The position numbers and the translations under genes were made by a program. This document shows, piece after piece, positions 9,363 to 38,314 of a stretch of 64,000 nt of DNA. The first letter of the stretch is position 1. Each line of letters begins with the position of its first letter. The notes under the pieces were generated by a model that was not told where the DNA came from, searched no databases, and saw only the letters and a program-made list of their open reading frames with translations. This DNA is from an uncultured virus (IMG/VR IMGVR_UViG_3300033074_001537) (taxonomy: Duplodnaviria; Heunggongvirae; Uroviricota; Caudoviricetes): IMG/VR virus record IMGVR_UViG_3300033074_001537. One strand, given 5' to 3'.

Positions 9363-12023
9363 TCACCGCTGTAGCAGGGAGTGCTTGAGCAGCTTTGCCT
9401 TCTTGGCTTCCTTCGGGCCGACGGTGCGCGCGCCTTCACGAGCAAACCAGCAGTTGTGTACCGCGTAGCCGTGCACGACGAACGACTCGTCTTCCTCGAC
9501 GTGCAGGTTGTAGACGGTCCCGCGGAACGTGCTCTTGTCGATGCGAAGCAGCGGCGCGCGCACACCCTCGGGAACCCGCTCCGTGTGGTACCCAGCAGCG
9601 GGGGGCCGGCGCACCGCGCCCCCGAAATGAACGCGGTCGAGGTCGCTCCCCGTGTTGTTGTAAAGCACGGCGGTGTCGTGCACGCCGAGGGTCACGCGGT
9701 ACTGCCCATCGACCAGCGACGTGACCCCCGTGTTCGGGTTCGTGTACAGGTGCTCGCCCTTGTCGATGATGAGCGAGGGACGAAACCCAGCGTCTACGAG
9801 GGTCTGGCGTGCCTGCTCGGCCATGCCGAGCGACCGGGTACGCAGCACGAAGGCACTGTTGCCGAAGCGATCCACAGGCATCGGGTCTTCGGCAACGAGA
9901 ACCCACCCACGGAGAACGGCGAGACGCAGGCTTGTGGGCGCACGGAGCCAGTTCCACGGAAGCGCGGCACGCCGACCGGCGGCCCCCAACAGCCGGATGG
10001 CGGCGACACCCTTCTGGCCGAGCACGATGCGGAACGAGGAGCGGTCTTCTTCGATGTGAAACCCCGTCCCCGGCGCAACACGGTTCGCCTGCTGCGTGCA
10101 GAACAGGCGTAGGTGCATCGAGTTCGGCGGCAGCTTCACGGAGAAGTGCGCAGCGCCGGGCCGAACCTTCGCGCGACTGGCGAGCAGGATGCCGACGAAC
10201 TGCATGAACTCTTCGTCGAGGGGCAATCCGAGCGCCGCGGCACCCGGCGGAAGCGCGGGCGGCTCCTCTGTGAACTCCTGCTGCGGCGACAAGAGCGAGT
10301 GGTGCTCGTTCAAGTCGCGAGCGCGCACCCACTGCCACCCTTCCGGCCAGTGAAACTCGCCCTGCTTTCGGTACTTGAAGTCCGCAGGGAACATCGCGAG
10401 CACGGGGTGCTCGTGCGTGACCGTGATCGGCGGCCCGTTTCGAGGGGTGAGCTTGTAGACCGTCGAGTCGTACGCGCGGCTGGTCACCTCGGTGACCTTG
10501 CGCCAGCGACCTTTGTGCGTGAGCACGCGGTCGCCCACTTCGATTTCTTCGATGCGCGTGGGGCCCCTGTGTGTGAGCACGCGCTGGCCGGGGGGTAGGC
10601 ACGCCATGAGATAGTCCGACGTGTGGCCCGCGGGCGAGTAGTTCATCATGCCGTTCATCCACGCTGCGACTTCATTGGTGAGTGGCTGGCCTCCCTGACT
10701 CGGGATGATCCACTTGCCGTTCTCCATCTCGACGGCGATCGACTCGACACCGAAAACCGGGTCGCTCTTGTTGCGGCCGGTGGTGAAGGGGCGCACGGGC
10801 ACTGCGGATAGATCGCGTGTGAAGTCGAGAATGAACGACTGCGCAGCGTTCGACTCTACGAACACGATGGACAGGTAGCGTTGGTGCGTGTTCACGATGC
10901 GCTGCACGATCTCGGGGGCGGTCCATCGCCCCGACTCGATGCACAGCACCTCGCGGTCGCCGTTCGGGTGAATGGCGATCGTAAAGATTACGCTCAGGTC
11001 AGAGTTCTTCTTACCCGTTCCGAGGTCTACGCCGGTCACGGTCATGTAGCCGGGGGGTACAACACGCAGCTCGCCGGGCATGGAGCGCCCGGAGCCTCGT
11101 TCGAGGGCGCGCTTGAGCCACTCTTCACGAAACCGCGAGTCGGTGTCGTCGCGCGCAACGCAGAGAAGCTGTCTCGCGAATTCGAGACTGCCCATCGTCT
11201 TGCTCTCTTCGATACGCTCGGCGGGCCAGCGCTCGGGCCACGACAGGGAGCCGTCTTCACGCACGACGGGGTTGCGTTCGGAGAACCAACCCGGCAGGGC
11301 CGCCAGCCGGTGCATCAAGTCTTCGGGGTGCCACGCCGTGCCGACGAGCCAGATGAAGGCGTTGGCGGTCATGCGCCCTGAGATGGTCGCGTTGTACCAG
11401 CGGTACAGGTCGTCGCGTGCGTGGTCGGTGCGTGTGTTCTCGTAGTCGAGCACGTCGTCGAGGAAGGCTCCGTCGAGGCGCGAGCCGAGCACGTTGCCGT
11501 GCACACCGACGGCTTGCACAGAGGGGTCGCGGGCGGCGGACGTACGCTTGACGGTGATGGCGGCGTCGGACCAGCGATCCCCTGGGACGAGGTTCGGAAA
11601 GACGAGCCGCAGCTCTTCGGACTGCTCGATGTACGTCTTGATTGCTTTAACAATCTTGACTGCCTGCCCCGCGGTGTTCGAGACGATGGCGAGGCGCAGG
11701 TCGGGGTTGTTCCCGAGGAGCCAGAGGGTGCGCATGACGCACAGCGAGAAGGACTTACCCGACTCGATGTGCGACCAGATGACGGCGCGCTTGTGCTTGC
11801 TGGCGATCTCGTGAAACCGGCGGTGGATGGGGGCCTGCCGGATGGGCTTGTGGGTGAGCTCGTCGCGCCCCACGAACTCGCAGAACACGTCACACGACAG
11901 CCGAGCCGCGGCGATGCGGATACGCTGTGCGCGTTCGAGCATGTCTCTCGCCGCGTCCGGGTTGGCGGCGAGCCAGTTCAAGACACGTTCTTTGTTCCGC
12001 TCGTCGAGCATGGCGCTGTTCAT
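9363..12023 (-). CDS. terL: Terminase large subunit containing an intein
   Basis: Walker A-like HIESGKS, Walker B AFLDD, GTAWHxED coupling motif, RNase H motifs TGVDLG, VESNAAQ and HTSD; probable start ATG 12023 (or 12011). Confidence 0.93.
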   Translation of the reverse strand: MNSAMLDERNKERVLNWLAANPDAARDMLERAQRIRIAAARLSCDVFCEFVGRDELTHKPIRQAPIHRRFHEIASKHKRAVIWSHIESGKSFSLCVMRTLWLLGNNPDLRLAIVSNTAGQAVKIVKAIKTYIEQSEELRLVFPNLVPGDRWSDAAITVKRTSAARDPSVQAVGVHGNVLGSRLDGAFLDDVLDYENTRTDHARDDLYRWYNATISGRMTANAFIWLVGTAWHPEDLMHRLAALPGWFSERNPVVREDGSLSWPERWPAERIEESKTMGSLEFARQLLCVARDDTDSRFREEWLKRALERGSGRSMPGELRVVPPGYMTVTGVDLGTGKKNSDLSVIFTIAIHPNGDREVLCIESGRWTAPEIVQRIVNTHQRYLSIVFVESNAAQSFILDFTRDLSAVPVRPFTTGRNKSDPVFGVESIAVEMENGKWIIPSQGGQPLTNEVAAWMNGMMNYSPAGHTSDYLMACLPPGQRVLTHRGPTRIEEIEVGDRVLTHKGRWRKVTEVTSRAYDSTVYKLTPRNGPPITVTHEHPVLAMFPADFKYRKQGEFHWPEGWQWVRARDLNEHHSLLSPQQEFTEEPPALPPGAAALGLPLDEEFMQFVGILLASRAKVRPGAAHFSVKLPPNSMHLRLFCTQQANRVAPGTGFHIEEDRSSFRIVLGQKGVAAIRLLGAAGRRAALPWNWLRAPTSLRLAVLRGWVLVAEDPMPVDRFGNSAFVLRTRSLGMAEQARQTLVDAGFRPSLIIDKGEHLYTNPNTGVTSLVDGQYRVTLGVHDTAVLYNNTGSDLDRVHFGGAVRRPPAAGYHTERVPEGVRAPLLRIDKSTFRGTVYNLHVEEDESFVVHGYAVHNCWFAREGARTVGPKEAKKAKLLKHSLLQR
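9453..10601 (-). mobile_element. Intein (383 aa) with a degenerate LAGLIDADG-type endonuclease region
   Basis: N-terminal CLPPGQRVLT, block B TVTHEHP, C-terminal VYNLHVEEDESFVVHGYAVHN followed by Cys(+1). Confidence 0.93.
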
Positions 12024-12044
12024 TGTTGTATGAGTAGCGTTGCC

Positions 12045-12752
12045 ATGCCGAAGCAGCAATACACGCGGGACTTGTACGAGACGTTGCTGGTGTACTACCG
12101 GGACCACGCGGAGGATCACGCGGAGGCTGCCCGGCGGTGTAAATGCACACGCAAGCTGGCACAGACGACCTACGAGCGCGGGTGGCGCGGCCTTGCGTGG
12201 GCGAAGCCGCTACGCGAGGTGCTGGAGTCTGAGCAGATGCAGGCGCGCGCGGCGCGCTTGAAGATGGAGCGCGAGTCCTTGGAGGCCGAGGAGCGCGCAC
12301 GCATGGACGCACGAAAGGATGCGTTGGAGGCGCGCGCCGCAGAGGCGAAGGGCGCGAAGCTGAGCAGGGCGAACGCGATCATGTTCTCGGCGGCCTGCTC
12401 AAAGGCGCTGGTGGGGTTGCAGCGCTTGGTCGCGGAATTCGAGGGCCGCACACAGAGCCCCGCCGCTGTGCAGAGCATGTCGTTGAAAGAGATTCGCTAC
12501 TGGATCACGACCGTCAGCGGCGCCGTACGCGACGCACAGGTCATGTTGAAGACGGCCCTAGAGATCGAACGCATCGTCACAGGCGAACCCCTGGCCGTGC
12601 TCTCGATCCGCACCGAGAACATGGGCCCGCAAGAGATGTACGCAGAGCTCACCCGCACCCTAGAGTCGCTGCGCATCCTCAAGCACCTCCCCAACGGCAC
12701 CGAAGGCAGAGACGCCGCCCTCGACATCCTAGACATAGACCCCACCGCCTAG
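12045..12752 (+). CDS. Putative terminase small subunit-like protein, divergent from terL
   Basis: Starts MPKQQ (alternative ATG 12030); N-terminal HTH-like segment AEAARRCKCTRKLAQTTYERGW, helical body, IERIVTGEP; adjacent to terL. Confidence 0.5.
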   Translation: MPKQQYTRDLYETLLVYYRDHAEDHAEAARRCKCTRKLAQTTYERGWRGLAWAKPLREVLESEQMQARAARLKMERESLEAEERARMDARKDALEARAAEAKGAKLSRANAIMFSAACSKALVGLQRLVAEFEGRTQSPAAVQSMSLKEIRYWITTVSGAVRDAQVMLKTALEIERIVTGEPLAVLSIRTENMGPQEMYAELTRTLESLRILKHLPNGTEGRDAALDILDIDPTA

Positions 12753-12793
12753 CCGCGCTTCGAGTAGGGGCATGGGTCGGGGGCCCGCGCCTC

Positions 12794-12914
12794 AATTCGT
12801 CTAAGAAAGGGTTTTTGGATTCTACATTTTAGAATTTCGTTTTAGAACGAGGTCGAAACTGCATTCATTTTCTAATTTCGTTTAAGAGGGCGGTTCAAAC
12901 TGCATTCATTTTCT
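12794..12914. repeat. Three degenerate ~40-bp AT-rich direct repeats
   Basis: AATT(T)CGTyTwAGA starts each unit; aaactgcattcattttct is identical at 12856 and 12897. Confidence 0.85.
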
Positions 12915-12981
12915 GATCTGCGTACCTACCCCTCCGAGCCTCCTGTTTTCCCAGGGGGGTACCCCCCATCGAAACGCAGAA

Positions 12982-13264
12982 CGGGCTAGTCACGTTTTGA
13001 TATCGTGACCGCTTTGGGTGACCAATGCGTACAGCCTTTGGATACCCTGACGAGCTAGTCACGTTTCGCGAACACGCGCGGAGGGTAGGGTACGCGCGCG
13101 AAACGTGACTAGGGAGTGTTGCGTTTGGGGGCGCTCTGAAACCCTGAACGAGCTAGTCATGTTTAAGAAAGGGTGACTGACTAGTGCGTACTGCGTTTCG
13201 ATATCGCGCACGAGCTAGTCAGCGTTTCGATATCGTGACTGACTAGTGCGTACTGCGTTTGGGG
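12982..13264. repeat. Array of four CTAGTCA...TGACTAG hairpin units
   Basis: CTAGTCA at 12986, 13055, 13153 and 13215, each followed by an inverted copy (degenerate in unit 1) and a tgcgtactgcgttt-like tail. Confidence 0.85.
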
Positions 13265-13545
13265 TATGGGCTCGGCACGAAGGCTGCTATGTGGGGCCCC
13301 CTAGAGCTCTGAGCAGAAAACCCTCTGAACCCCCTTGCGTTCTCTTTAAGAATGGGTATTGTGTTGGGGCCTCGACGAACTGGCCCCGCAAGGGGGCCCT
13401 GGCGCGCCAAGGGCGCGAAACGCGAGACGCGAGAGTCACAACATACTTCCCCCGCTGCGGCGGGGGCCTTTTCGCGTTCTAGGACTAGGCGCGAAACTGG
13501 GGAAGGGTGCGTCTTGTGTGCGCACCCTGGAAAAGGATCGAAACC

Positions 13546-13659
13546 ATGACCCGTTGGCAAAGTTTCATGCTCTGGGTAGTGTTCATCAACGTCATCCTTG
13601 GCGTGTTCGGGGGGATCATCGCGACCGCGATGATCCTGCTCGGCGGCGGTGTCGCATAA
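13546..13659 (+). CDS. 37-aa single-TM hydrophobic peptide
   Basis: AAAGGA RBS; MTRWQSFMLWVVFINVILGVFGGIIATAMILLGGGVA. Confidence 0.55.
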   Translation: MTRWQSFMLWVVFINVILGVFGGIIATAMILLGGGVA

Positions 13660-13860
13660 GACACCTAAGTGTCGCGATGTACGCAATGAGCTTGGGTACT
13701 GCGATCATCGCGGTGCTCAACATCCTGTACGCCTAGCTAGGCACTGTGCCTAGCTTCCCTCTGCGCATCGCACGCGCGTAGGGTCGCCGGTACCCCCCGG
13801 CAGAGCTCTTTTACAACTAGACGCACGCGCCTACCCCTGGCGCCTCTCATGCTCGCGAGC

Positions 13861-13876
13861 TGTTTCACGTGAAACA
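13861..13876. promoter_or_regulatory. parS site (perfect consensus)
   Basis: TGTTTCACGTGAAACA, the canonical 16-bp chromosomal ParB-binding palindrome. Confidence 0.88.
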
Positions 13877-14003
13877 GACTCCCGCAGCAAGGGGGATACC
13901 CAGGATGCAAGGTACCCGCGTGCGTCACCTCTGCCAATACCCCCACCGGGCCCATTGAACCCGGTGGGGTCGATACCGCGATGCCTCGCAGTACCTACCG
14001 CCG

Positions 14004-14019
14004 TGTTTCACGTGAAACA
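14004..14019. promoter_or_regulatory. parS site (perfect consensus)
   Basis: Second exact TGTTTCACGTGAAACA, 143 bp from the first. Confidence 0.88.
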
Positions 14020-14105
14020 GCTTCCGGCGGTAGGTTCTACGGCGCACCGCGCCGTGTCTCGAAACCAACGCCGCGATTCACCGCGGCACTTGAAAGGAAT
14101 TCATC

Positions 14106-15083
14106 ATGGCCAAGAGCTCTAAGTCTAACCGCCGCGCCCCTCGTACCACCATCCTTGCCACCATCGCGGATACCGACACCGCCCCGGCCGACGAGGCCAC
14201 CGTGCTCGACACCGCCCGCGAGATTGCCGCGTACTCGGCGGCCGCGTCCGCGGCGGACACCGCCGCCCCGGTGAACACCGACACCGCCGCCGAGCTCACC
14301 GCGGTGAACACCGCCGCGGTCACCGACACCGCCGCCCCGGCCGACACCGCGGCCGACCCCCACGGCGCGGCCGTGGCCTTCCTGGCGGCCTTTGATCCGG
14401 CGCGGTTGCCGCCGGGGATGCACGCGAAGTTTCTGGCCAGGGGCAACGTGACCCGTATGGGTCGCGTAGCTCTCGCGGCGGCCGGAGTCGAGTTGGATGG
14501 TCCAACGCACCGGGCATACAACGAGCTCCGTTCAGGGTTCTGGTCCCGTATGGGCGGAACCCTCCCGCGGCGCGAAGGGGGCGGGCCCCGCACGTCCAAC
14601 GGTACCCGCGCGTCCGGCGGGCCCCGCGGTAACCGGGCGGCCCGTATCGCGGTGTTCGCCAAAAAGATTGCCGCGGCGGCGGGGAAGCTGGCCGACATTC
14701 TCGCCGCGGTTCCCGCGGGTGCCGCGCCCTTGGGTGACGGGCCCGAGTCACTGGCCACGGTCGCCGCGGTCGCCGCGGGCGCGTTCGCCACGGTGGCCGC
14801 CGCCGTGGCCGGCCGCGCAGAGACGAACCCGGCCGGGTTCGAGGCGCCGCGAGTCGCTACGCCGGCCGTGGCGCCGGTTCCCCTCACGGTGGGCGGATGG
14901 GCGGTGCTCACGCCGGCCGGCCGCCGCAGTGCCGTCGAAGGTGGTCTTATCGACGAAGGCGACGCGGGGGAACGCCTCACCATCGTAGCACTGCCCGACG
15001 GCGGAAAGGTAGCCACCGTGCGAACCGCGTCGGGCGACCGCACTCGCATCGCGACGCGGTTTCTCGTCGGTGTGACGGCGTAG
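14106..15083 (+). CDS. Early-region Ala-rich hypothetical protein
   Basis: GAAAGGAATT RBS; N-terminal DTA/NTA low-complexity repeats. Confidence 0.75.
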   Translation: MAKSSKSNRRAPRTTILATIADTDTAPADEATVLDTAREIAAYSAAASAADTAAPVNTDTAAELTAVNTAAVTDTAAPADTAADPHGAAVAFLAAFDPARLPPGMHAKFLARGNVTRMGRVALAAAGVELDGPTHRAYNELRSGFWSRMGGTLPRREGGGPRTSNGTRASGGPRGNRAARIAVFAKKIAAAAGKLADILAAVPAGAAPLGDGPESLATVAAVAAGAFATVAAAVAGRAETNPAGFEAPRVATPAVAPVPLTVGGWAVLTPAGRRSAVEGGLIDEGDAGERLTIVALPDGGKVATVRTASGDRTRIATRFLVGVTA

Positions 15084-15201
15084 TTCCGTCACCTAGCACC
15101 GGGGCGCCCTACCGCGCCGCGCCCCGGTGCTCACTCCCGCGCGGTCGTTTATGTGTATTCGTTTAATGTTTGGTTTTAGACCGTCTCGAACCCTCTAGAC
15201 G

Positions 15202-15225
15202 GTTTGCATAAGAGATTATGCAAAC
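15202..15225. promoter_or_regulatory. Perfect 10-bp inverted repeat, operator-like
   Basis: GTTTGCATAA-gaga-TTATGCAAAC in an AT-rich intergenic region. Confidence 0.55.
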
Positions 15226-15294
15226 ATCGGCCGGCGCACGGTACCCGCCCGGCCGTTACCTACCCCGCACCGGGTACCTGGAAAGGGAATTGTC

Positions 15295-15627
15295 ATGGAT
15301 AAGAGCTTGAACCGACTGGCCCGTGAGAAGTTCGAGACTGCGCACGCGGCCGCGTGCGCCGCAGCCACGGCCCGCGGGCCCGCACTGGCCGAGATGTCGG
15401 CGGTCTGCGGGGCCCCCGCGGATTACCCGGAGCTGCTCAATGGCCGTATCGCGGCCTACGCCGACGCGGCCCGCGCCGCCGCGGAAGCTGGCCTCGCGTT
15501 CGACGCGGTAGGGTCTACGCCCGGCGTAGACCCGGCGGCCTACTTCGCCGGGGCGCGGGCCCTCGCCGCGCCCGACGATCGCGGCGCGCGCGAACGGGCA
15601 GACCGCGCGTTCGACGCGGTTTGCTAA
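15295..15627 (+). CDS. Early hypothetical protein
   Basis: GAAAGGGAATT RBS; starts MDKS. Confidence 0.75.
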   Translation: MDKSLNRLAREKFETAHAAACAAATARGPALAEMSAVCGAPADYPELLNGRIAAYADAARAAAEAGLAFDAVGSTPGVDPAAYFAGARALAAPDDRGARERADRAFDAVC

Positions 15628-15782
15628 CCTGCCAGGGCCCGCGCGGGCCCTGGCTTCATGCGCCGCATAATATCGGTGCGTCCACCGTCCTAGCTAGACG
15701 GTACGCGCGGCGCGGGAAACCCGTACCCTCGTGCATGGTGCACGGGCAGCCGGGGAGCCAAACCAAGAAAAGGAATTGAGCC

Positions 15783-16196
15783 ATGAACAAGAGCGAAGCC
15801 AAGGCTACCGCAGAGATCGTCGCGAGCGGGCTGTGCGAGGTCGCAATCGTCGGAAACAGCAAGGGTACCGTGTACGTGTACGCGGAAGGAATGTGCGTGG
15901 CAGTGCTCGACGTTCCGGGCGCAGGGGTACGCGGCGCAGCATCGGAAACGCTGGCGCGGGGGATGCTCCGCGCGGAGCGTCGCCGTATCGCCACGGACGG
16001 GCACGGATGGTCTGCGGACGTGGCTACCAGGGAGCTCGACTACAGCGTAAGCCCAGGTGTTGCCAAACACGCTTTCCGAGAGATCGTCGGCGCGTTGCGC
16101 CGGTGGGAGCGCCAGAACCCCACCGCGGCTAGGGTCCGCTCCGAGCAGAACGGCGCGGCGCGCGCCGCGCTCAATGCGTGGGTCAAAGCGCACTGA
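15783..16196 (+). CDS. Early hypothetical protein
   Basis: GAAAAGGAATT RBS; starts MNKS. Confidence 0.75.
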   Translation: MNKSEAKATAEIVASGLCEVAIVGNSKGTVYVYAEGMCVAVLDVPGAGVRGAASETLARGMLRAERRRIATDGHGWSADVATRELDYSVSPGVAKHAFREIVGALRRWERQNPTAARVRSEQNGAARAALNAWVKAH

Positions 16197-16291
16197 GCGA
16201 ACAGCCCCCGCGTGATGGGGCTGGCACTGCGCGCCCATAGTGGGCGCGTAGCCCGCGGCTGCGAGGATGCCGCACAGCGCAGGGGATGCGC
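16197..16291 (+). ncRNA. Candidate structured RNA element, copy 1 (four stems)
   Basis: 34 nt identical to 16691-16724, followed by stems with compensatory changes relative to copy 2. Confidence 0.6.
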
Positions 16292-16363
16292 GCCGTGCTC
16301 ACGGTGAGCACGCACTGTCGCGGGTTTCTTCGGGCACCCGCGACACGACAAGAGGAAACCGCC

Positions 16364-16684
16364 ATGAACAAGAATACCACCATGAACAAGAACGATATTC
16401 ACAGCATCGCCACGGTCATCGCGACCGTCGAGGACGCGGCGGCCCGTGCCTCGCTCCGAGCGAACTACCGGCGCGCGAAGCGCGCGAGCCTTTCTCGCGC
16501 CGAGCGCGCATGGAAAGACCTGTTTTTGGAGGCGAGCGACTGGAATCTCGCCCCCGAGGACAATCGGAGGCTGCACGCCATCGCGATGCACGCGATCCGC
16601 GAGAGATGGCGCATGGCACAAGCCATGTCGGCGAGCGAGCGCCATCGGTTCGCAGAATGGCGCAGTATGGGGTACGTCTGCTGA
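16364..16684 (+). CDS. Early hypothetical protein
   Basis: AAGAGGA RBS; starts MNKNTTMNKND. Confidence 0.75.
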   Translation: MNKNTTMNKNDIHSIATVIATVEDAAARASLRANYRRAKRASLSRAERAWKDLFLEASDWNLAPEDNRRLHAIAMHAIRERWRMAQAMSASERHRFAEWRSMGYVC

Positions 16685-16690
16685 CCCCCC

Positions 16691-16786
16691 GCGAACAGCC
16701 CCCGCGTGATGGGGCTGGCACTGCTGTTTCATAAAGAAACAGCAGCCCGCGGCTGCACGGATGCCGCAAGAGCGCGGGGAACGCGC
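16691..16786 (+). ncRNA. Candidate structured RNA element, copy 2
   Basis: Same stem architecture as 16197-16291. Confidence 0.6.
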
Positions 16787-16798
16787 CGGAAAGGAATT

Positions 16799-17371
16799 GT
16801 GATAATCCGGGTGAACACCGTGCCCGTGCTCGACGAAGACGGGGCAACCCGTCACGTCCCGCACGGGACAATGGTAAGCTACCGGCGGCAGCCGGTAGCG
16901 ATCGAGACGGTACCCGTTGACGGTACCGTCGTGCTCGACACGCCCACCGGGCGTGTTACCGCGTGGGTCGAGCCGGCCTACGCGACGCGCCCCGGGCGCC
17001 CTTCCGTCGCGGCGAGCGACGTGGCGGGCCCGCGCGCAGAGTACCGCACCGCCGCCCCCACGGCGGTGCACACGCGCGCCGTGGGGGCGTGCGACCGCAC
17101 GCCGAACCGGGGCACCGCGCATATCGCGTTGGTGCCCGTTGCCCGCGGCGCTGCCGCTGGTACGGCTCGAGTCACGTTTTCGTGGCTCGACCCCAGCCTC
17201 TCCCCCGCGCGCCGGTCCAAGCTCGCGCGGATGGTTTTCGAGCTCGCGGGGCTCGAAAACCCATCGTCGGACGGCGCCTGGGCTGTCCGCAACCTGGATG
17301 AAACGCACCGCGAGCTTGTCGCGGTGTGCGCTCAACTGGGGATCATGCCCGCAGTTCACCGCGTGGCGTGA
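16799..17371 (+). CDS. Early hypothetical protein
   Basis: GAAAGGAATT immediately before GTG 16799; exact start uncertain. Confidence 0.65.
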   Translation: MIIRVNTVPVLDEDGATRHVPHGTMVSYRRQPVAIETVPVDGTVVLDTPTGRVTAWVEPAYATRPGRPSVAASDVAGPRAEYRTAAPTAVHTRAVGACDRTPNRGTAHIALVPVARGAAAGTARVTFSWLDPSLSPARRSKLARMVFELAGLENPSSDGAWAVRNLDETHRELVAVCAQLGIMPAVHRVA

Positions 17372-17458
17372 TCCCACCCCCGAAGCCGCGGGGCTTTTTC
17401 GCGGCGCGCAGAATGCCGAACCCGAGCAACGCGAGGGTGAGGCAAGCATGTGCACGGT

Positions 17459-17974
17459 TTCGTTTAAGACTTCTGCTTTTGGCTCCGGCTCGGGGGGAGC
17501 GGGGGGTTTCCAAAGGGGGGTATGCGGGGGGCGACGGCGAGCGAAGCGAGCCCGCCCCCCTATATCCCCCCTTTGGGCTGAGTGCGCGAAGCGCACCATG
17601 CACGGGCACCGCGGCGAGCGGAGCGAGCCCGTGCCCGTGCATCCTCGGCGAAGCCGAGGGTCCGATTGTCATGGTTTGGTCATAGTTTGGTCATTTTCTC
17701 ACCATCGTTCACTTTTTCCCTTGTCCGATCGCTCGGTTTCTCTTAAAACGGGGGGTAGGGGGGAGCCGGACAGAGGGCCCCGGCTTCGCCGGGGGGTGAG
17801 AGGGCGAAGCCCTCTCACCGGGCGGCTTCGCCGCCCCAATGCGAGGGGGGGCTGCTGCGCACCCCCCCTCCACCCCCCCGCTGTCCAGACTCCAGATTCA
17901 GACCATAGGGAATGGAGCTTCGCTCCATTCCCTATACACGGAAGCCCGAGGTGCGCTCAGGCTTCTTAAACGAA
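17459..17974. other. Non-coding hairpin cluster, candidate origin or ssDNA signal
   Basis: Six stems capped by GCGAAGC/GCTTCGC, G/C runs, flanked by inverted TTCGTTTAAGA copies. Confidence 0.6.
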
Positions 17975-18004
17975 CGGTATTAAACGAAAAGAATAGGCGG
18001 ATCA

Positions 18005-19189
18005 ATGGACGTGCTCGAAGTGCTCAAGGTTGCCTACTTCGCGCGGGGTGGGTCCTACGGTGACGGGCTGCCGTTGCTGTTTTGGGGCCTCCCCGGCCCC
18101 GGAAAGACCGCGATCATCGAGCAGTTCGCGAGATCGCTCGGGGTGCACTGCGAAGTGCTTTCCCCCGGCGAGCGCGGGGAGGGGGCGTTTGGCTGCGTCC
18201 CCGTCCCCGTTGGCAAGGCGAAGGATACGCGCATCGCGTATCCCGCACCGTGGTGGCTTGACGACTTCAACGACAGGCCGGGCTCCATCCTCTTCGTGGA
18301 TGAGCTTTCGTCGGCGCCCCCGGCGTTGCACCCGCCGTTGTTGGGGCTTATCCAAGCCAAACGCATCGGCGGCAGCGAGCTCCCGCGCACGACGAGGGTT
18401 TTCGCGGCTGCGAACCCCCCGGAGTGCGCCGCGGGTGGCTTCGACCTCGCGCCGCCCGTGGCGAACCGGCTGGGCCACATTCAGTGGCCCATGCCCACTG
18501 CTGAGCAGTGGGCCGACTACATGATCGGCGGCGCTTCGGGCGTGCGCCGCCCCATCGACGTGGCAGCCGCCACGTCGCTCGTGGAATCGGGCTGGGACGC
18601 CGCGTTCGCGGCGGCGTCTGCGCTGACGAGCGCGTTTGCGCGAGCGAACCCCGGCATCCTGCACAGGATGCCGACGGAAGGGAGTGCCGCGAAAGCGTGG
18701 CCCTCCCACCGCACCTGGGAGCTCGCCACGCGAGCTCTTGCGTCGGCCCGGCTGCATCGGGCGAGCGAAGAGACGAGCATCACGCTCGTCTCGGCTTTCG
18801 TTGGCGACGGCGCCGCGAGCGAATTCTTGACCTGGGCTGCCAGGCAAGACCTCCCCGACGCTGGGGAACTTCTCGACGGGCGTGCGACGTTCAAGCACGA
18901 CCCGGCGCGGGCCGACCGCACGCATGTGGTCGCGTCGGCCCTCGCGGCGACGCTCATCAGTGAGCGCGCCGACAAGGCGCGCTTCTCCGCGCGCGCCGAA
19001 AAGATGTGGGCGATCTTCGACGGCTTGGCCGTCGAAGGTGTGGACTTGATCTACGGTGCCGCGCGAGCGGCGCTACTGGCCGCCAAGAACGGCCACCCGC
19101 TCGCGCCGGCCCTGACCACGGGGACGGCTTGGATTCGGGTTATGACCAGAATCAAGCCCGCCCTCGCGGCGGCGGGCATCACCCCGTAG
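18005..19189 (+). CDS. MoxR-type AAA+ ATPase
   Basis: Walker A WGLPGPGKT, Walker B ILFVDE, sensor AAANP, PVANR, PSHRTWE. Confidence 0.9.
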   Translation: MDVLEVLKVAYFARGGSYGDGLPLLFWGLPGPGKTAIIEQFARSLGVHCEVLSPGERGEGAFGCVPVPVGKAKDTRIAYPAPWWLDDFNDRPGSILFVDELSSAPPALHPPLLGLIQAKRIGGSELPRTTRVFAAANPPECAAGGFDLAPPVANRLGHIQWPMPTAEQWADYMIGGASGVRRPIDVAAATSLVESGWDAAFAAASALTSAFARANPGILHRMPTEGSAAKAWPSHRTWELATRALASARLHRASEETSITLVSAFVGDGAASEFLTWAARQDLPDAGELLDGRATFKHDPARADRTHVVASALAATLISERADKARFSARAEKMWAIFDGLAVEGVDLIYGAARAALLAAKNGHPLAPALTTGTAWIRVMTRIKPALAAAGITP

Positions 19190-23451: not shown

Positions 23452-23976
23452 GTGAACCAAACAATCGTGGACGTGCTCAACGAAGCCGCACGACGGTACA
23501 ACCGCGTGTGGTGGGCAAACGCAATGGAGCTCACTCAAGCCGCGTGGCCCGACGTGCTCGTGGCCAGCCGTCGGTTCGACCCGGCCCGCGGCGACTACCG
23601 CGGTCTGCTGTACCACGTCGCCGTGCGGGCAATGGCGCGGTACCTGCGCTCGATGAGTGCCCCGGTGAGCGGGGACGTGTGGCGCAAGGGGAGGCTCGAC
23701 GGGATTCTTAGAGAACCCGTCGAAGACGATTCTTTAACACTTGACGCCGCGCCCGAGCGGGTCGAATGTGTCGCGCGGGTTCGCGCCCGCGTCGAGGAAG
23801 TCCTCGGAGAAGAGGCGCCGTTCGCAGTGCGTTTGCTAACGCGCGAGAGCACGGCACAAGAGATTGCCGACGAGGCGGGTGTATCCACCAGTCTCGTATA
23901 CAAGTGGACGATGGTGTGGCGTCGTGTTCTCAAGCACGACGCCGAGCTCCGTCTGCTGTGGGAGGAGTCCGACTGA
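23452..23976 (+). CDS. Small sigma70-family (ECF-like) sigma factor
   Basis: Region 2-like ELTQAAW...RRFDPARG; region 4 HTH TAQEIADEAGVSTSLV. Confidence 0.75.
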   Translation: MNQTIVDVLNEAARRYNRVWWANAMELTQAAWPDVLVASRRFDPARGDYRGLLYHVAVRAMARYLRSMSAPVSGDVWRKGRLDGILREPVEDDSLTLDAAPERVECVARVRARVEEVLGEEAPFAVRLLTRESTAQEIADEAGVSTSLVYKWTMVWRRVLKHDAELRLLWEESD

Positions 23977-32644: not shown

Positions 32645-33198
32645 CATACGCCGGCTACGGGGTGTGGCCGTTCAACCGCCCCGACCGCGAACCGATCGCC
32701 GTGTTTCACGGCGACAACGCCCAGGAGCTCGCACGGAACTACGCCAACCTCGTCGGTGGAGCGCTGGTGAGCCCCGTGACCTGCATCACGTCGAACCGTA
32801 GTGACGACGTGTTGCGGAGCGTCTCCAACTACGAAGAAGTCATCGCGACCTTGGAGCGCAAGGTCGAAGACGTGGAGCACAATCTGGAGCTGGAGCGCCT
32901 CGGCCGCGAAGACACGCGTAGGCAGAATCTAGCGGCGCTGGCAGCCTATTCCAAACAAGTCGCAGCGCTCTTGCGCGCGGTCAACGCTGTGCCTTCGCAG
33001 GGGTTCTCGCACCAACACATCGTAGACAGCGTGGTCGAGCGCAGGTTCTACGACGAGAAGTACGTTCACGAGCTGGAAGTCGCCCTGGGGCTAGAGGGCT
33101 TCCCCGAAGTCGCCATCGAGCGTCTCCGCAGACGGTGCATCATCGCGGGAGGCAACTACGCAATTCGTCCGCACGATGGAAAGGTCGCGACACCGTGA
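32635..33198 (+). CDS. Hypothetical coiled-coil protein
   Basis: AAGGAG RBS before GTG 32635. Confidence 0.65.
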
Positions 33199-34022
33199 GC
33201 AACAAGCTGCTGCCCCCGGAAAACCTGCTGCGCAACCGGCCGAAGAAGGGTACGACGAACATCAAGCGCATCGGTAAGCAGCGGTTGCGCCACGAGATGA
33301 ACCTCGCGAACCTGCGCTTGATCGGCGTAGACAAGGCGCGCCCCAAGACGCGTGCCGACTGTCTGCAAGGGCCGAATGCGCAGCGCCCGTGCCCGTTCGT
33401 GTCGTGCAAGCACCACCTGTACCTCGACGTGAATCAGCGCGTGGGCTCCATCAAGCTGAATTTCAGCGACCTCGACGTAGGGATGCTGTGGGAGACATGC
33501 TCGCTCGACGTGGCCGACCGCAACGGCGCGTCGCTCGACGAGATCGCGAAGTACATGAACCTCGGGCGTGAGCGCGTCCGTCAGATCGAAGAGGCGGCGC
33601 TCGCGAAGCTGAAAGATGGTGTGGCCGCGTTGGGAATCAGCGCGAGCGATATCACGCACACGTTCAGCGCGTGGGATACCGCGACCTCGCCCGTCACCTC
33701 CGAGGTAGACGGCATCGACGACAGCGAATACAGGGCCATCTCGCGCCAAGTAATCCGAGACTCGGGCGACTTGCTCAAGGTGCCGGTGTTCATGCGCGGC
33801 GACATGGCGCTGCTCAGCAGTGAGAGGGGGCGCAAGTTCGTCTTGGCCCGCGCGACGAAGAAGCTCGATCGGTACAAGCGGGGGCTGGCCACCGCGCAGG
33901 GGTATCTTGCGAAGTGCGTCGCCAAGAACCGCAGCACCGTGATCGCGCAGCGCTCGATCCACCGATACAAGCAGCTCATGGCCCTGACGGCGCGCCGGAT
34001 CGAAGCGATCCAGAACTTGTAA
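33195..34022 (+). CDS. Sigma70 region-4 HTH protein with a Cys/His N-terminal domain
   Basis: RPKTRADC...[16 protein letters not shown]...[20 protein letters not shown]. Confidence 0.85.
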
Positions 34023-34359: not shown

Positions 34360-35214
34360 ATGCTGTCTATTGCTCAGTACCTCGCCGGGATCAAGCGCTG
34401 CGGAAACACGCCCAAGTCGTTCCGCAACTGGTTGGACTACGCCACGCAGGAAGACGAAAGCGACGGTGTGCCAAAGCACAAGTTCGACGCGTGCGGTGGG
34501 GGGTTTCTCAACCCGCTGTCTCAACAGCCCAAAACAACCATCATCGCGGTGTACAAATACTGCCGAGCGACCCGCAAGAGCGGGGTGCCTGCGGCTCCGC
34601 GTAACGACAACTTCGTGATCGGGTTCGGTGCGCTGGACGCGCCCCACTGGTCGCACGGCGCGCTCAGCAAGTGGTTCGTTGGCATGGAGTGGTTTAGCCA
34701 ACTCGGCTTGAGCCTGCGTGGGGTTGGGGCGTCCCCGATGCTGGCGGGGATGCTCAACACCATCCCGCAGGCGATTCCCGGTGCTTGGTGGGCGGCGTGC
34801 CCGCATGGGTTCACCGTGTCCACTCCCGGCAACAACGTGGTGGAGCTGCGCCCGTACCCCGCGGGCAGCGACGTGCACTTCCTCGCGTACTACGGCGACC
34901 AGACGGCCGACGTAGCGCCGGAGGCGGACCTCGGGCAGATCATCTTCGATCTCGTCACGAAGCCGCGTACGCAGAAGCCGATGACCACGCCGCGAGAGCC
35001 CGAGCAGCCTACGGTTGCCACGGCGTCCCCGTCGGTGGCTTACGCGCGTTTCCGAGACATGGAGCGGGAGATGGACGAGCTTCGCTTGACCGTGAAGAAG
35101 CTCACGGGCGGCGCGGAGATCGCCAAGTACGTTCTGCAACAGATCAACAACGGGTCTGCCGTACCCCCGGCGCTCGTGAACTACGCCATCGCCCGTCTCG
35201 GGGGTGGCGAGTGA
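34360..35214 (+). CDS. Hypothetical protein
   Basis: AGGAGG RBS. Confidence 0.75.
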   Translation: MLSIAQYLAGIKRCGNTPKSFRNWLDYATQEDESDGVPKHKFDACGGGFLNPLSQQPKTTIIAVYKYCRATRKSGVPAAPRNDNFVIGFGALDAPHWSHGALSKWFVGMEWFSQLGLSLRGVGASPMLAGMLNTIPQAIPGAWWAACPHGFTVSTPGNNVVELRPYPAGSDVHFLAYYGDQTADVAPEADLGQIIFDLVTKPRTQKPMTTPREPEQPTVATASPSVAYARFRDMEREMDELRLTVKKLTGGAEIAKYVLQQINNGSAVPPALVNYAIARLGGGE

Positions 35215-35648
35215 ACGGGGCAGAGCTTCTCGTGGCGCTCTTGTCGCTGTGGCGGCACATGCGGTACCGCGAGTGCATCGAAGCGCACCGCGCTCAGATC
35301 GTCGCCGTCGCAGAGGCGGGTGAACGTGAGTACGGCGTGCCCGCCGGCTTGTCGCTGGTGACGGGCTTCTTCGAGACACACCTGGGCTGCGCGCACGGTG
35401 AGGGTGGCAATTGGGGTGCGCCCATCGACCGCTTTCACCGGCACACCGCAGGTACGCCCATGCACGCCGTGCGTGCGATGGCTGCAAGCTACCGAGTGTG
35501 CGGCACCTGGGTTGGTGCGGTGGGTCGCTTTCGTTCGGGCTTGTGCCACCCGACGAACCCCCTGCATCGTGTGGCGGTCACCATGCGCGTGCGAACTACA
35601 CGCATCATCTACCAGCAGGCGGGCCTACCCGTCCCCGAGGGCTTGTGA
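35211..35648 (+). CDS. Putative lysozyme-like/SLT transglycosylase
   Basis: EYGVPAGLSLVTGFFET resembles the SLT catalytic Glu motif; hydrophobic N-terminus. Confidence 0.5.
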   Translation: MNGAELLVALLSLWRHMRYRECIEAHRAQIVAVAEAGEREYGVPAGLSLVTGFFETHLGCAHGEGGNWGAPIDRFHRHTAGTPMHAVRAMAASYRVCGTWVGAVGRFRSGLCHPTNPLHRVAVTMRVRTTRIIYQQAGLPVPEGL

Positions 35649-38314
35649 AGCATCTCCCACTCTACCCAAACGGTACGCCCTCCCCAACGGACAACCGGGT
35701 GCCTGCACCGAGCTCGGGGCTCGGATGTACCGCGTGCGAGCTCTCGTCGGGGGCCAAGTACGCACCTCTGGCCAACTACGTTCTCGGTCGGCGCATGAGC
35801 GGCGGAGCCGAGAAGGGCGCACCTTCCGTAGCTGTGGTGTTCGAGGCGCCGACTCGCGGTGAGGACGCAGGCGGTGACCCGTTTAGTAGCGCCACCTACC
35901 GTACGCTGGTGGAGATCATCCGTGCGTCGAGCACTCACCGTGTCGTGCCGATGTACGCCGTGCACTGCGCCCCTGGTAACGCCGAGGTAACTGCGGAGCA
36001 CGTCACAGCTTGCCGAGGGCATCTTCACGAGACGATCGCCCAGGGTGCCGCCGCCGTGCATCTCATCATCGCGGTTGGCCCTCTGGCGCACATCGCGGTG
36101 CTCGGTCGGAAAGTCGCGGCAGACCTCGTGCCCAACACGGTGAGCGTGATCGACGCGTTTTGGGCCAAGCGCGTTCCCGTCATCTGCCTGCCCGCGGCGA
36201 GCGTGCTGCGCAAAGACCCGGCGCGGACGCGGTGGCGCATCGCGGACGCGATCGAAACGGCACAGAACGTGGCTAGGTCAATCCATCACGGCCGGCTCGC
36301 GACAACCTTCGTCCAGTCGTACGAAGACCATCTGCGCGTGCTCGGAGTTCTTAAAAAGGCAGACGCACTTGTGTTCGACACGGAGACGGTCGGCCGGCTG
36401 CATACTCCGACGTTCTACGTCGAGGAGCTGTCGTTCGCTGTGAACGACAGTAACGCGGTCACCTACGGCCGCGATGTGCTGGGCGATCGACGCGTTCGTA
36501 GTGACTTGAAGGCGCTGTTGGAGAACCACGCCGTCTGCAAAGTCGGCCACAACATCAAGTACGACCTACTCGCGCTGCGGACGTGGCTCAACGTGCACTG
36601 CTTCGGGCACCCGCTTCGCGACACGCGCCTCGACCACAAGCTGCTGCACGCAGACTCGGTGGGTGACCTCGCGACCTGCGCAGAGATGGTCGGCTTCGGC
36701 GGCCACAAGGAAGAGGCGCGGGCGGCGATCGACGTGGTCAAGCACGACCTGAACGCGCTCGCTTCGGCGCCGAAGCGAGCTCTGACCAAGAGCGGCAAGC
36801 CGCGGAAGCCGCCAACGCTCAAGTACCTCGACGAGTCCGAGGTGGACCCCGAGCATCTCGAAGACATCCAGCAGGGCGCCGACACCGAAGCGTACGCGCA
36901 GGCGTACATTCCGTGGCGTATCCGTGCGCGATACAACGCGCTCGACGCGATGAGCACCTACTGGCTCGACAAGCTCAACGCAGACCGCTTCGACATGTCC
37001 AACCGCGAGTTGTCGGAGGGGCGTATGGCGGTCGCGAACGAGATCGTGCGGCCTGCTATCTCCGCGCTGGTCGAGATGGAGGCGACGGGTATCCGTGTGG
37101 ACACCGCGGCGCTAGACATCTTCACACAGTTCTTGAAGTCCGAAATCGCCGTAGTGCAGTCTCGGCTCAACCACTACCCCGGCGTGAACTTCGCGAGTCC
37201 GAAGCAGCTCGCGGAGCTCCTCTACGACAAGCTCGGGCTGCCTGTGCTCGCAGAAACACCCTCGGGGGGCCGCGCGACCGGCGAAGAGGTGTTGCTCGAA
37301 CTCGCGGAGAAGACCAAGCACCCGCTTCCAAAAGACGTGCTCGCTTTCCGCGAGCTCGAAAAGCTGCTCGGCACCTACGCCGAGGGCATGAAGAAGCACA
37401 TCCGTGTGGGGCCCAACGGGCCGCGCATCCATCCGAGCACGCTGCTCGACGGGGCTGGTACCGGCAGGTTGTCCAGCCAGAACCCCAACATGCAGAACGT
37501 GCCGAGCCCCGACCGAGATACGCCTGGGCGGCCGGCGTTCGGCAAGATGGCTCGTGACATCTTCGTCGCAGACCCAGGCTGCGTACTCCTCGAAGTGGAC
37601 ATGAGCCAGCAAGAGCTGCGCATCGCTGGGATGCTCTCGGGCGACCCGGTGATCCTCGAATGTTATAAGAACAACGAGGATATTCACCGCGGCACGGCGG
37701 CGATTGTGTACGGCGTCCCGCTGGCCGCAGTAACGAAGGAGCAGCGGGCACGCTCGAAGACCGTGACCTTCGGGCTGGTGTACGGCAAGACCGACCGCGG
37801 GCTCGCCAAGCAGCTCAACATCACCGTGGCGGAAGCCGTGCGCATTCGCAAAGCGGTGCTCGGGCGGTTCAAGAAACTCGCAGAGTTCTGCGAGCGGTGT
37901 CTGGCGTCGGCCCGCAGGGACGGTGGCGCGTATACATGGTGGAACGGTCACGAGCGGGCGCGGTGGCGCCCGCTGCCTGCGATCAACGACATGACCGACG
38001 AAGGCTTCGGCGCGCGCATCAACGCGGAGAACGCCGCGGTGAACACCCCGGTCCAGGGGCTCGCTGCGGACATCGTCACCGCCAGCTTGTTTCCGATCGT
38101 TGCCCGCTTCCGCAAGGACAACCTCGACGCGCAGCTGGTGAACACCGTGCATGACTCGGTGATGATCAACGTGCGCGAAGACCAGCTACCGCTCGCCGCC
38201 AAGATCATGCGCGAAGTGATGCTCGGGCACAACACGAACGGGTTTCCGCTGGGCGTTGACATGAAGGTGGGCAAGAGCTGGGGCAGCATGACCGAGTACC
38301 ACCTACCGGGGTGA
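35645..38314 (+). CDS. Family A DNA polymerase with an N-terminal UDG-like domain and 3'-5' exonuclease
   Basis: CTAC...EAP..ED..GDPF...HCAP (UDG-like); FDTET, HNIKYD, YNALD (exonuclease); TGRLSSQNPN, DMSQQELR, KTVTFGLVYG, VHDS (polymerase). Confidence 0.95.
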   Translation: MKHLPLYPNGTPSPTDNRVPAPSSGLGCTACELSSGAKYAPLANYVLGRRMSGGAEKGAPSVAVVFEAPTRGEDAGGDPFSSATYRTLVEIIRASSTHRVVPMYAVHCAPGNAEVTAEHVTACRGHLHETIAQGAAAVHLIIAVGPLAHIAVLGRKVAADLVPNTVSVIDAFWAKRVPVICLPAASVLRKDPARTRWRIADAIETAQNVARSIHHGRLATTFVQSYEDHLRVLGVLKKADALVFDTETVGRLHTPTFYVEELSFAVNDSNAVTYGRDVLGDRRVRSDLKALLENHAVCKVGHNIKYDLLALRTWLNVHCFGHPLRDTRLDHKLLHADSVGDLATCAEMVGFGGHKEEARAAIDVVKHDLNALASAPKRALTKSGKPRKPPTLKYLDESEVDPEHLEDIQQGADTEAYAQAYIPWRIRARYNALDAMSTYWLDKLNADRFDMSNRELSEGRMAVANEIVRPAISALVEMEATGIRVDTAALDIFTQFLKSEIAVVQSRLNHYPGVNFASPKQLAELLYDKLGLPVLAETPSGGRATGEEVLLELAEKTKHPLPKDVLAFRELEKLLGTYAEGMKKHIRVGPNGPRIHPSTLLDGAGTGRLSSQNPNMQNVPSPDRDTPGRPAFGKMARDIFVADPGCVLLEVDMSQQELRIAGMLSGDPVILECYKNNEDIHRGTAAIVYGVPLAAVTKEQRARSKTVTFGLVYGKTDRGLAKQLNITVAEAVRIRKAVLGRFKKLAEFCERCLASARRDGGAYTWWNGHERARWRPLPAINDMTDEGFGARINAENAAVNTPVQGLAADIVTASLFPIVARFRKDNLDAQLVNTVHDSVMINVREDQLPLAAKIMREVMLGHNTNGFPLGVDMKVGKSWGSMTEYHLPG

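Follow-up and report, generated by a model that had tools for sequence, protein, structure and literature searches.

A conserved four-hairpin non-coding element, duplicated among the early genes of an uncultured tailed phage

Two copies of the element in the early operon

The window analysed here is a stretch of 64,000 nucleotides (65% G+C) from an uncultured tailed phage that carries its own replication genes (IMG/VR record IMGVR_UViG_3300033074_001537). Among its early genes, two copies of an intergenic element with four tandem hairpins, designated P1 to P4, lie on the plus strand at 16197-16291 (copy A) and 16691-16786 (copy B). The element is a real, conserved and structured non-coding feature that is not in Rfam. 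With a probability of about 0.5, we read it as a cis-acting, four-hairpin leader RNA of the gene that follows copy B (P0004, 16799-17371), with P4 placed at the ribosome-binding site, and as the crossover homology by which a cassette bearing the gene between the copies (P0002, 16364-16684) was acquired.

Copy A opens with the 5' sequence GCGAAC, followed by P1 (16202-16223, with 16202-16208 paired to 16217-16223), P2 (16227-16251, with a G+C-rich apex), P3 (16255-16273, loop UGCGAGGAU) and P4 (16277-16291, loop GGGGA). Copy B comprises P1 (16696-16717), P2 (16721-16745, with an A+T-rich apex, TGTTTC/GAAACA), P3 (16749-16767, loop UGCACGGAU) and P4 (16772-16786, loop GGGAA), and the element as a whole spans ~96-100 nt. 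A first-pass annotation, made by a model from the letters of the sequence, had described two copies with 34 nt in common, each just after a stop codon and each with these four stems, and this description was borne out. The shared letters form an exact direct repeat (16197-16230 = 16691-16724) for which 0 occurrences are expected by chance, and the 22-nt P1 hairpin occurs exactly 2 times in the window versus 0.00 expected (100 shuffles). Copy A abuts the TGA of the gene at 15783-16196, leaving 0 nt, and copy B begins 6 nt past the TGA of the gene at 16364-16684. Both copies yield the four hairpins as a minimum-energy or centroid fold. Because single-sequence folding energy is unremarkable for 65% G+C (z = -1.07 for copy A and -2.62 for copy B), the structural support derives from comparison of copies: every in-stem difference between A and B preserves pairing, and the remaining differences fall in loops and linkers.

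The plus-strand block opens with small early genes, all of unknown function, at 14106-15083, 15295-15627, 15783-16196, 16364-16684 and 16799-17371, and a divergent, repeat-rich region at ~12.7-14.1 kb divides it from the structural genes on the minus strand. The stop codon of P0001 (15783-16196; 137 aa, no family) adjoins copy A, and P0002 (106 aa, no family) is the cargo between the copies. Two extra hairpins (16295-16311 and 16317-16344, plus strand), between copy A and the start of P0002, are parts of the inserted cassette and lie outside the conserved element. P0004 encodes 190 aa from a GTG start at 16799, preceded by a ribosome-binding site at 16790-16795 (AAAGGA). Directly 3' of P0004, a terminator-like hairpin with a T run (17378-17399, plus strand) is the probable end point of the early operon to which the element belongs. 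A consensus scan restricted to the sigma-70 type found 0 promoters in 12400-18200 on either strand, versus 0.7 expected, and ARAGORN reported only a tRNA-Ser at 34676-34748, leaving the element region empty.

Homologues, pairing and distribution

Covariance model R1 was built from copies A and B together with the copy in the record closest to the window, an 84.7-kb IMG/VR genome with terminal repeats (G001); an IMG/VR fragment, L026, was excluded. R1 yields just 2 strong matches in the window, copy A at 114.9 bits and copy B at 123.6 bits, with the next best at 17.3 bits, and 1 strong match in the G001 record (G001:3027-3128). Gene order in G001 is P0003, the element and an orthologue of P0004 (89% identical), with no P0002. 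In L026, R1 detected a further copy at 60.9 bits (E ~1e-10), directly before a P0004 homologue that is 68% identical. The order there is a homologue of the gene at 15295-15627, a 14-bp hairpin, the element and the P0004 homologue; the P0001-type gene is absent, and the element begins 50 nt past the upstream stop, behind that other hairpin.

The first-pass annotation had proposed a new cis-RNA outside known families and suggested running Infernal against Rfam and searching phage metagenomes with a covariance model. Its proposal emerged strengthened on both counts: the homologue in L026, recovered by a model built without it, retains the stems, and Rfam 15 gave 0 matches at gathering scores across the whole window. 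Even at E<=10, the interval 15500-17500 returned 5 weak matches, only one of which, sX9, overlaps the element, and that on the minus strand at 19.4 bits versus a gathering score of 44 (E = 1.3).

Further searches combined sequence patterns with scoring by R1. An exact P1 pattern found 2 stretches in IMG/VR, one in the G001 record and one in a 30.7-kb record that is identical to the window over the compared stretch, and a P3 pattern recovered only 3 already-known records there. A degenerate P1 pattern gave 8 IMG/VR stretches, of which 6 were new, scored <=23.5 bits and matched only the pattern-fixed part. Among JGI metagenome contigs, a degenerate P1-type pattern likewise gave 8 stretches; 1 is real (L018, carrying the G001 allele, 123.2 bits) and the other 7 score <=23 bits. 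The P3 pattern found 10 stretches in GTDB (one genome per species), and the single one at E<=0.01 (23.5 bits) lacks P1 and P2 and was taken as chance. A weak R1 match in the upstream gap at 15625-15716 (14.5 bits; 19.4 in L018) was attributed to a composition rich in hairpins on both sides and not to common descent. With a second model, R2, no element was detected in 77 loci of distant phages that share the MoxR-like ATPase (28-47% identity), the best score being 17.9 bits (E = 0.99). From the pattern scans and this null result in distant loci, the element and P0004 are confined to one narrow clade, in which they co-occur. The phage clade that carries the element is narrow, uncultured and of lytic type.

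Comparison of four distinct copies from three lineages (alignment A5) placed 106 of 107 stem cells in standard pairs, with 10 of 27 pairs changed on both sides (8 in P2 and 2 in P4), in keeping with the compensatory changes that had been noted between copies A and B. None of 500 column shuffles reached any of five measures, and pairing fell to 30-46% when the 3' partners were slid by 1-3 columns; these controls are not probabilities. RNAalifold independently predicts the same four stems. P2 occurs as three unrelated sequences, the third of them in L026, and each forms a 10-11-bp stem. L026 has lost both partners of an A-U pair in P1, and P4 shows A-U to G-C and G-C to U-A exchanges, the latter compensatory and found in L026.

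Variation is distributed unevenly over the alignment, with 24 of 54 paired columns variable versus 14 of 45 unpaired, such that 31 of the 45 unpaired columns are invariant. The fixed letters comprise the 5' GCGAAC, most of loop 1, the GGCA and CCC linkers, loop 3 apart from its two middle letters, and the GGGAA core of loop 4. With P2 set aside, copy B and L026 are identical in 61 of 74 columns (82%; 13 differ), and the flanking genes in the L026 lineage comparison are 61-75% identical in DNA. With variation concentrated in the stems, and with the element, P2 apart, better kept than the flanking genes, the pattern is a signature of RNA whose loops are read and whose stems need only pair. The element is non-coding: an in-frame TGA 15 nt upstream of the ATG in L026 closes the long-ORF extension over copy B, and indels of 1-2 nt between copies count against coding.

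Wobble pairs occur at the base of P2, as G.U in copy A and as U.G and G.U in G001. The G-T pair that the first-pass annotation had cited in favour of plus-strand RNA is present, but the argument built on it is weak, with 106 of 107 cells paired on the plus strand versus 104 of 107 on the minus. Because pairing cannot settle the strand, its assignment rests on gene orientation.

So slight an asymmetry between strands would also suit a feature acting at the DNA level, such as protein-binding palindromes, single-stranded DNA hairpins used in replication or recombination, or functionless G+C-rich palindromes recopied by recombination, and homology breakpoints do lie at the element's edge. Moreover, copy B has a P2 apex (TGTTTC, 5 nt, GAAACA) that equals the half-sites, with one additional base between them, of a perfect 16-bp palindrome, TGTTTCACGTGAAACA. 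This palindrome lies at 13861-13876 and 14004-14019, ~143 bp apart and upstream of the first plus-strand early gene, and also occurs twice in G001 (782-797 and 926-941; 0 expected by chance); the pair looks like a paired operator. In contrast to a sequence-specific DNA site, however, P2 keeps its 10-11-bp stem in three unrelated sequences, tolerates wobble pairs at its base in copy A and G001, and belongs to an element whose invariant letters are in the loops and not in the arms. Its position beside the ribosome-binding site is constant in three lineages, and retention in L026 across ~30% divergence of neighbouring genes argues against a neutral scar. We regard a DNA-level feature or scar as highly improbable.

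Other pairings within the RNA were also considered. The first-pass annotation had suggested a switch in which GGGCTG pairs with a downstream YAGCCC; that pairing is perfect only in copy B, has one wobble in copy A and two in G001, and meets a central mismatch in L026. We do not adopt the switch, because no compensatory changes preserve the pairing of the P1 3' strand with the P2 3' base and CCC linker. Loops 1 and 3 could form a kissing pair in copy B and G001, as assessed by eye, but this is lost in copy A and L026, and L026 alone showed GCGAAC in long-range contact with the beginning of the coding sequence. A sigma-54-like promoter at TGGCAC, in the P1-P2 linker, was likewise dismissed by eye, as its -12 element fails in copy A, G001 and L026.

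Position before P0004 and the leader reading

In all three lineages (window, G001 and L026), the element lies directly upstream of a P0004 homologue, and a protein search recovered this family in 4 clusters only, all clade-specific. The distance from the end of P4 to the start codon is 12 nt in the window, 9 or 18 nt in G001 depending on the choice of start, and 13 nt in L026. A purine-rich ribosome-binding site falls within 1-3 nt of P4, with AAAGGA 3 nt past P4 in copy B. It is this fixed geometry of P4 and ribosome-binding site, together with co-occurrence with P0004, that leads us to consider the element a leader of the P0004 gene and probably a protein-binding translational operator. The link to one downstream gene goes beyond what the first-pass annotation had proposed.

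Under the leader reading, the element would be part of a polycistronic early transcript and act in cis on P0004. An RNA-binding protein supplied in trans by phage or host would read the invariant loops, namely the GGAUG core of loop 3, the GGGAA of loop 4 and the loop of P1, and P2 would be a mere spacer arm of free sequence. Because P4 touches the ribosome-binding site, the bound factor would most likely occlude or expose that site, thereby setting initiation of P0004 translation and perhaps mRNA stability.

Several observations weigh against this interpretation. The A5 alignment was fitted to the model structure, and four distinct copies from three lineages are too few for a formal covariation statistic (R-scape). 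P3 and the remainder of P1 are invariant and carry no information on pairing, for or against, and some minimum-energy folds contain a competing helix in which a 5' CCGCG pairs with a CGCGG over the linker and the P3 5' strand. The discrimination between strands is slight, as described above. P0004 and its neighbours match no Pfam or PHROG family that would point to a binding protein; the predicted model of P0004 is poor (pLDDT 46), with no Atlas match. Finally, copy A lies 72 nt from the next start codon and before a different gene, a poor fit to a pure P0004 operator. Contigs from three RNA-library runs (X3, X4 and X8) that cover parts of 14000-18500 are neutral in this respect, as the libraries may hold DNA and the contigs give neither ends nor strand.

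That copy A follows a gene and does not stand beside a start codon would suit RNA punctuation. In that case the hairpin array would be an intercistronic processing or stability element, a nuclease entry point or barrier that sets P0004 apart from the cistron before it and protects the resulting ends, without a dedicated regulator. The element starts 0-6 nt past the upstream stop in copies A, B and G001, and G+C-rich hairpins fill every intergenic gap of the early operon. Protective hairpins, however, need no fixed loops, yet 31 of 45 unpaired columns are invariant beside flanking genes that are 61-75% identical. The L026 element, although 50 nt from the stop and behind another hairpin, is still beside the P0004 start, and no stem has the long, internally looped form of a T7 RNase III site. 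Overall, we consider punctuation unlikely.

The sequence of the loops raises the possibility of control by host CsrA/RsmA, with GGA motifs in the P3 and P4 loops and in the ribosome-binding site. A CsrA dimer would bridge loop and site and repress P0004, as at glgC. GGA is present in loops 3 and 4 of all four copies and in the ribosome-binding site past P4 in the window, G001 and L026. Loop 3 reads A-N-GGAUG in three of four copies and GAGGAUG in copy A, its variable columns being those just before GGA. A review gives the CsrA SELEX consensus as RUACARGGAUGU with GGA in a hairpin loop, the CsrB repeats as CAGGA(U/A/C)G and the RsmE target as an ANGGAN hexaloop, and describes in the glgC leader an upstream hairpin site and a site over the ribosome-binding site (PMC7652899). 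Loop 3, by comparison, has 9 nt on a 5-bp all-G/C stem, unlike an ANGGAN hexaloop on a weak stem, and extra loop letters and very stable stems are reported to lower CsrA affinity (PMC7652899). The estimated frequency of a chance match is a few per cent per 100 nt at 65% G+C, and several motifs were tried. P1, its loop and the 5' GCGAAC would go without explanation. Furthermore, neither the G001 nor the L026 record contains CsrA (PF02599), and the only portal relatives among cultured phages infect Ralstonia and Komagataeibacter, groups mostly not known to carry CsrA. A CsrA leader thus appears very unlikely.

The form of P4 invites comparison with processive antitermination sites such as lambda nut or HK022 put, in which the nascent transcript, unaided or with P4 bound by a small phage protein, would modify RNA polymerase for terminator read-through. 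In three of four copies P4 is a 5-bp stem with an all-purine pentaloop of the form G...A (GGGAA or GGGGA), and in L026 a 7-nt loop presents the same GGGAA core flanked by U.U. Phage N proteins recognise boxB via a pentaloop with a GNRA-like fold, and put RNAs are likewise cis-acting, multi-stem and present twice per genome (PMC9074901, PMC9378689). The element also lies in the early operon, upstream of the terminator-like hairpin at 17378-17399. That hairpin, however, is the sole terminator-like site before the next gene block and comes after P0004, and the next genes lie beyond ~630 nt of non-coding sequence that resembles a new control region. No boxA-like motif was seen on the plus strand when read by eye against the boxA consensus, a reading made with no tool search, and no small arginine-rich N-like protein was recognised among neighbours that match neither Pfam nor PHROG, a point on which no dedicated search was made. 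The put RNA consists of two long stems in ~70 nt, versus four short hairpins here (PMC9074901, PMC9378689), and antitermination would leave the tight, conserved spacing to the ribosome-binding site unexplained. We therefore find an antitermination site distinctly improbable.

More speculatively, and as a proposal that we ourselves hold unlikely, the element could typify an undescribed class of phage leaders. Such a leader would be a portable four-hairpin platform whose loops recruit a regulator (a host CsrA-type protein, a phage N-like protein or an autoregulatory P0004) to gate translation or transcription of early genes, and which captures accessory cassettes by recombination between alleles.

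Cassette insertion, phage context and known systems

The two copies in the window differ in their relation to the G001 allele. Copy A has 1 difference from G001 in columns 4-67 and 5 in columns 68-102, and is G001-like through P2 and the P3 5' strand; copy B has 14 and 2, respectively. This arrangement fits reciprocal chimeras, the pattern that a single crossover between two alleles of the element would leave. From position 16689 exactly, the window and G001 are again homologous in DNA. Contigs of runs X3 and X4, from a relative ~96% identical across P0004, join 15805 to 16690 by 355 other letters, and from this junction the relative carries a single element copy and no P0002. P0002 is absent from G001, L026 and this relative. 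Insertion of a cassette, like the link to P0004, was no part of the first-pass annotation.

The simplest history would be one crossover of recent date, located in the invariant letters that separate P2 from loop 3. Its partners would be the resident element and a second allele that brought the two extra hairpins and P0002, carried for example on a circular or co-infecting molecule, and the outcome would be reciprocal chimeric copies flanking P0002. No other non-coding block is conserved in this hypervariable slot, which is made up of small early genes, and the element would for that reason serve as recombination homology. The window and G001 form a mosaic in which the ATPase is 99% identical, P0004 89%, and P0001 and P0003 just 36%. 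P0001 is a fast-diverging orthologue of P0003 (131 aa), and the sharp divergence is limited to the early-gene slot, with almost none one kilobase downstream. An old, in-place tandem duplication is unlikely, as P0001 and P0002 share 27% identity over 74 residues (E = 0.043), yet the element copies keep 34 identical bases.

The 5' ends of the small genes also show resemblances (15763-15796, 16362-16395 and 14088-14108 in the window). A start ATGAACAAGA is common to P0001, P0002 and P0003 of G001 and occurs twice in tandem in P0002, and a ribosome-binding motif, AAAGGAATT, recurs before 14106, 15783 and 16799. These shared gene ends may provide left-hand homology for cassette exchange.

Beyond the early operon, the window encodes a family-A DNA polymerase, DnaB-like and other helicases, a primase, a gp32-like protein, RecA and SbcCD. 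Its minus strand carries terminase, portal and a fibre protein of the Ralstonia-phage GP4 type. Two sigma-like proteins match sigma-70 region 2 (23452-23976, plus strand) and region 4 (33135-34022, plus strand), and host RNA polymerase is probably redirected by these factors of the phage's own. Cultured phages gave zero DNA-level matches to the window; their protein matches are remote, at <=30% identity for the polymerase and 25-28% for the portal (Ralstonia and Komagataeibacter phages), and the MoxR-like ATPase has no protein match among them.

Two regions border the early operon. Between the divergent gene blocks, a repeat region of lower G+C at 12820-13260 contains tandem repeats of two lengths, 41 nt (12825 and 12866, plus a third copy at 34016) and 62 nt (13131 and 13193), and four occurrences of the motif GAGCTAGTCA, each with an inverted repeat beside it; this region is a possible promoter or origin cluster. 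The other, ~630 nt of non-coding sequence (17372-18004) that separates P0004 from the MoxR-like ATPase gene, is kept in the L026 lineage (L044 1995-2610) and contains many short G+C hairpins with GAAG or TTCG loops, G- and C-runs, and three TTTGGTCAT-type direct repeats at ~17670-17697. This stretch could act as an origin or as a second control region.

Further features lie elsewhere in the window. The large terminase subunit (9363-12119, minus strand, 918 aa) has matches to Hint and intein-splicing domains in mid-protein, which suggests an intein, and an intein domain also occurs in some ATPase homologues of relatives (P0020 and P0026). The DNA polymerase I-type protein (35411-38314, plus strand) has a uracil-DNA-glycosylase-superfamily match at residues 140-270, before its exonuclease and polymerase domains. 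At 52197-52799 (minus strand), a 60-nt periodic repeat in 7 copies of 60-71% identity lies just downstream, in the sense of that strand, of a 660-aa ORF (52892-54874).

Outside model phages, the catalogue of structured cis-regulatory phage RNAs is poor, and the element, which is probably a regulatory RNA of a type still missing from it, offers a small and clean example with covarying stems, conserved loops and a fixed place against the ribosome-binding site. Close relatives that carry one, two or differently flanked copies amount to a natural experiment. Should a binding partner be found, the element would constitute a new RNA-protein control module for early phage genes and a second, promoter-less example of regulatory modules acting as crossover points for gene shuffling, with a reach limited by its narrow distribution in three lineages of one uncultured clade.

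Several known systems invite comparison. An integron attC site, which the position after stop codons and beside a cassette brings to mind, is one long, imperfect hairpin whose two ends carry paired core sites, with an integron integrase nearby; the four tandem hairpins do not fit this form, and scans of 41 proteins against PHROGs and 80 against Pfam revealed no integrase. The early RNase III sites of T7 are single long hairpins with an internal loop at each gene junction. They resemble the element as repeated, structured intercistronic features of a polycistronic early mRNA, just past stop codons, and differ in that here four short hairpins with conserved loops stand at one junction, or at two in the window.

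CsrA/RsmA leaders such as glgC, and the hairpins of CsrB/RsmZ, share with the element GGA-loop hairpins before a GGA-bearing ribosome-binding site, at a spacing that would suit a bridging dimer (PMC7652899). They have no counterpart to P1 and P2, which make up half of the element, and the Csr/Rsm families of Rfam gave no match. The nut sites of lambda and P22 and the put sites of HK022 are likewise cis-acting structured RNAs of early transcripts with two copies per genome (PMC9074901, PMC9378689), and P4 resembles boxB, in form only, as a 5-bp hairpin with a purine pentaloop. However, nut has one hairpin and put two long ones, and put lies just downstream of early promoters; the element has four hairpins, with its two copies in tandem within one operon ~2-3 kb in and after two to four genes. 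One of those copies is, moreover, a recent insertion product, and relatives are single-copy.

A parallel in genome organization is with the PeSL (promoter-early stem-loop) cassettes of the T4-type phages RB49 and phi1 (Arbiol et al. 2010, PMC2839356). PeSL combines a strong sigma-70-like promoter with one terminator stem-loop and occurs in many copies per genome, whereas the present element has neither component in our consensus scan, is linked to a single gene and is present in only one or two copies. P4 and the ribosome-binding site lie too close together to accommodate a promoter, no U/T run follows any of P1-P4, and copies A and B contain no plus-strand terminator-like site, the three at 16739-16761 all being on the minus strand. 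In both systems, nevertheless, a small conserved non-coding module stands among small early genes that are non-essential and whose function is unknown, single genes gained or lost among close relatives are accounted for by recombination between copies, and two copies flank the mobile gene (PMC2839356). The corresponding junctions are found here: copies A and B flank P0002, homology resumes at 16689/16690, and the two copies are reciprocally chimeric.

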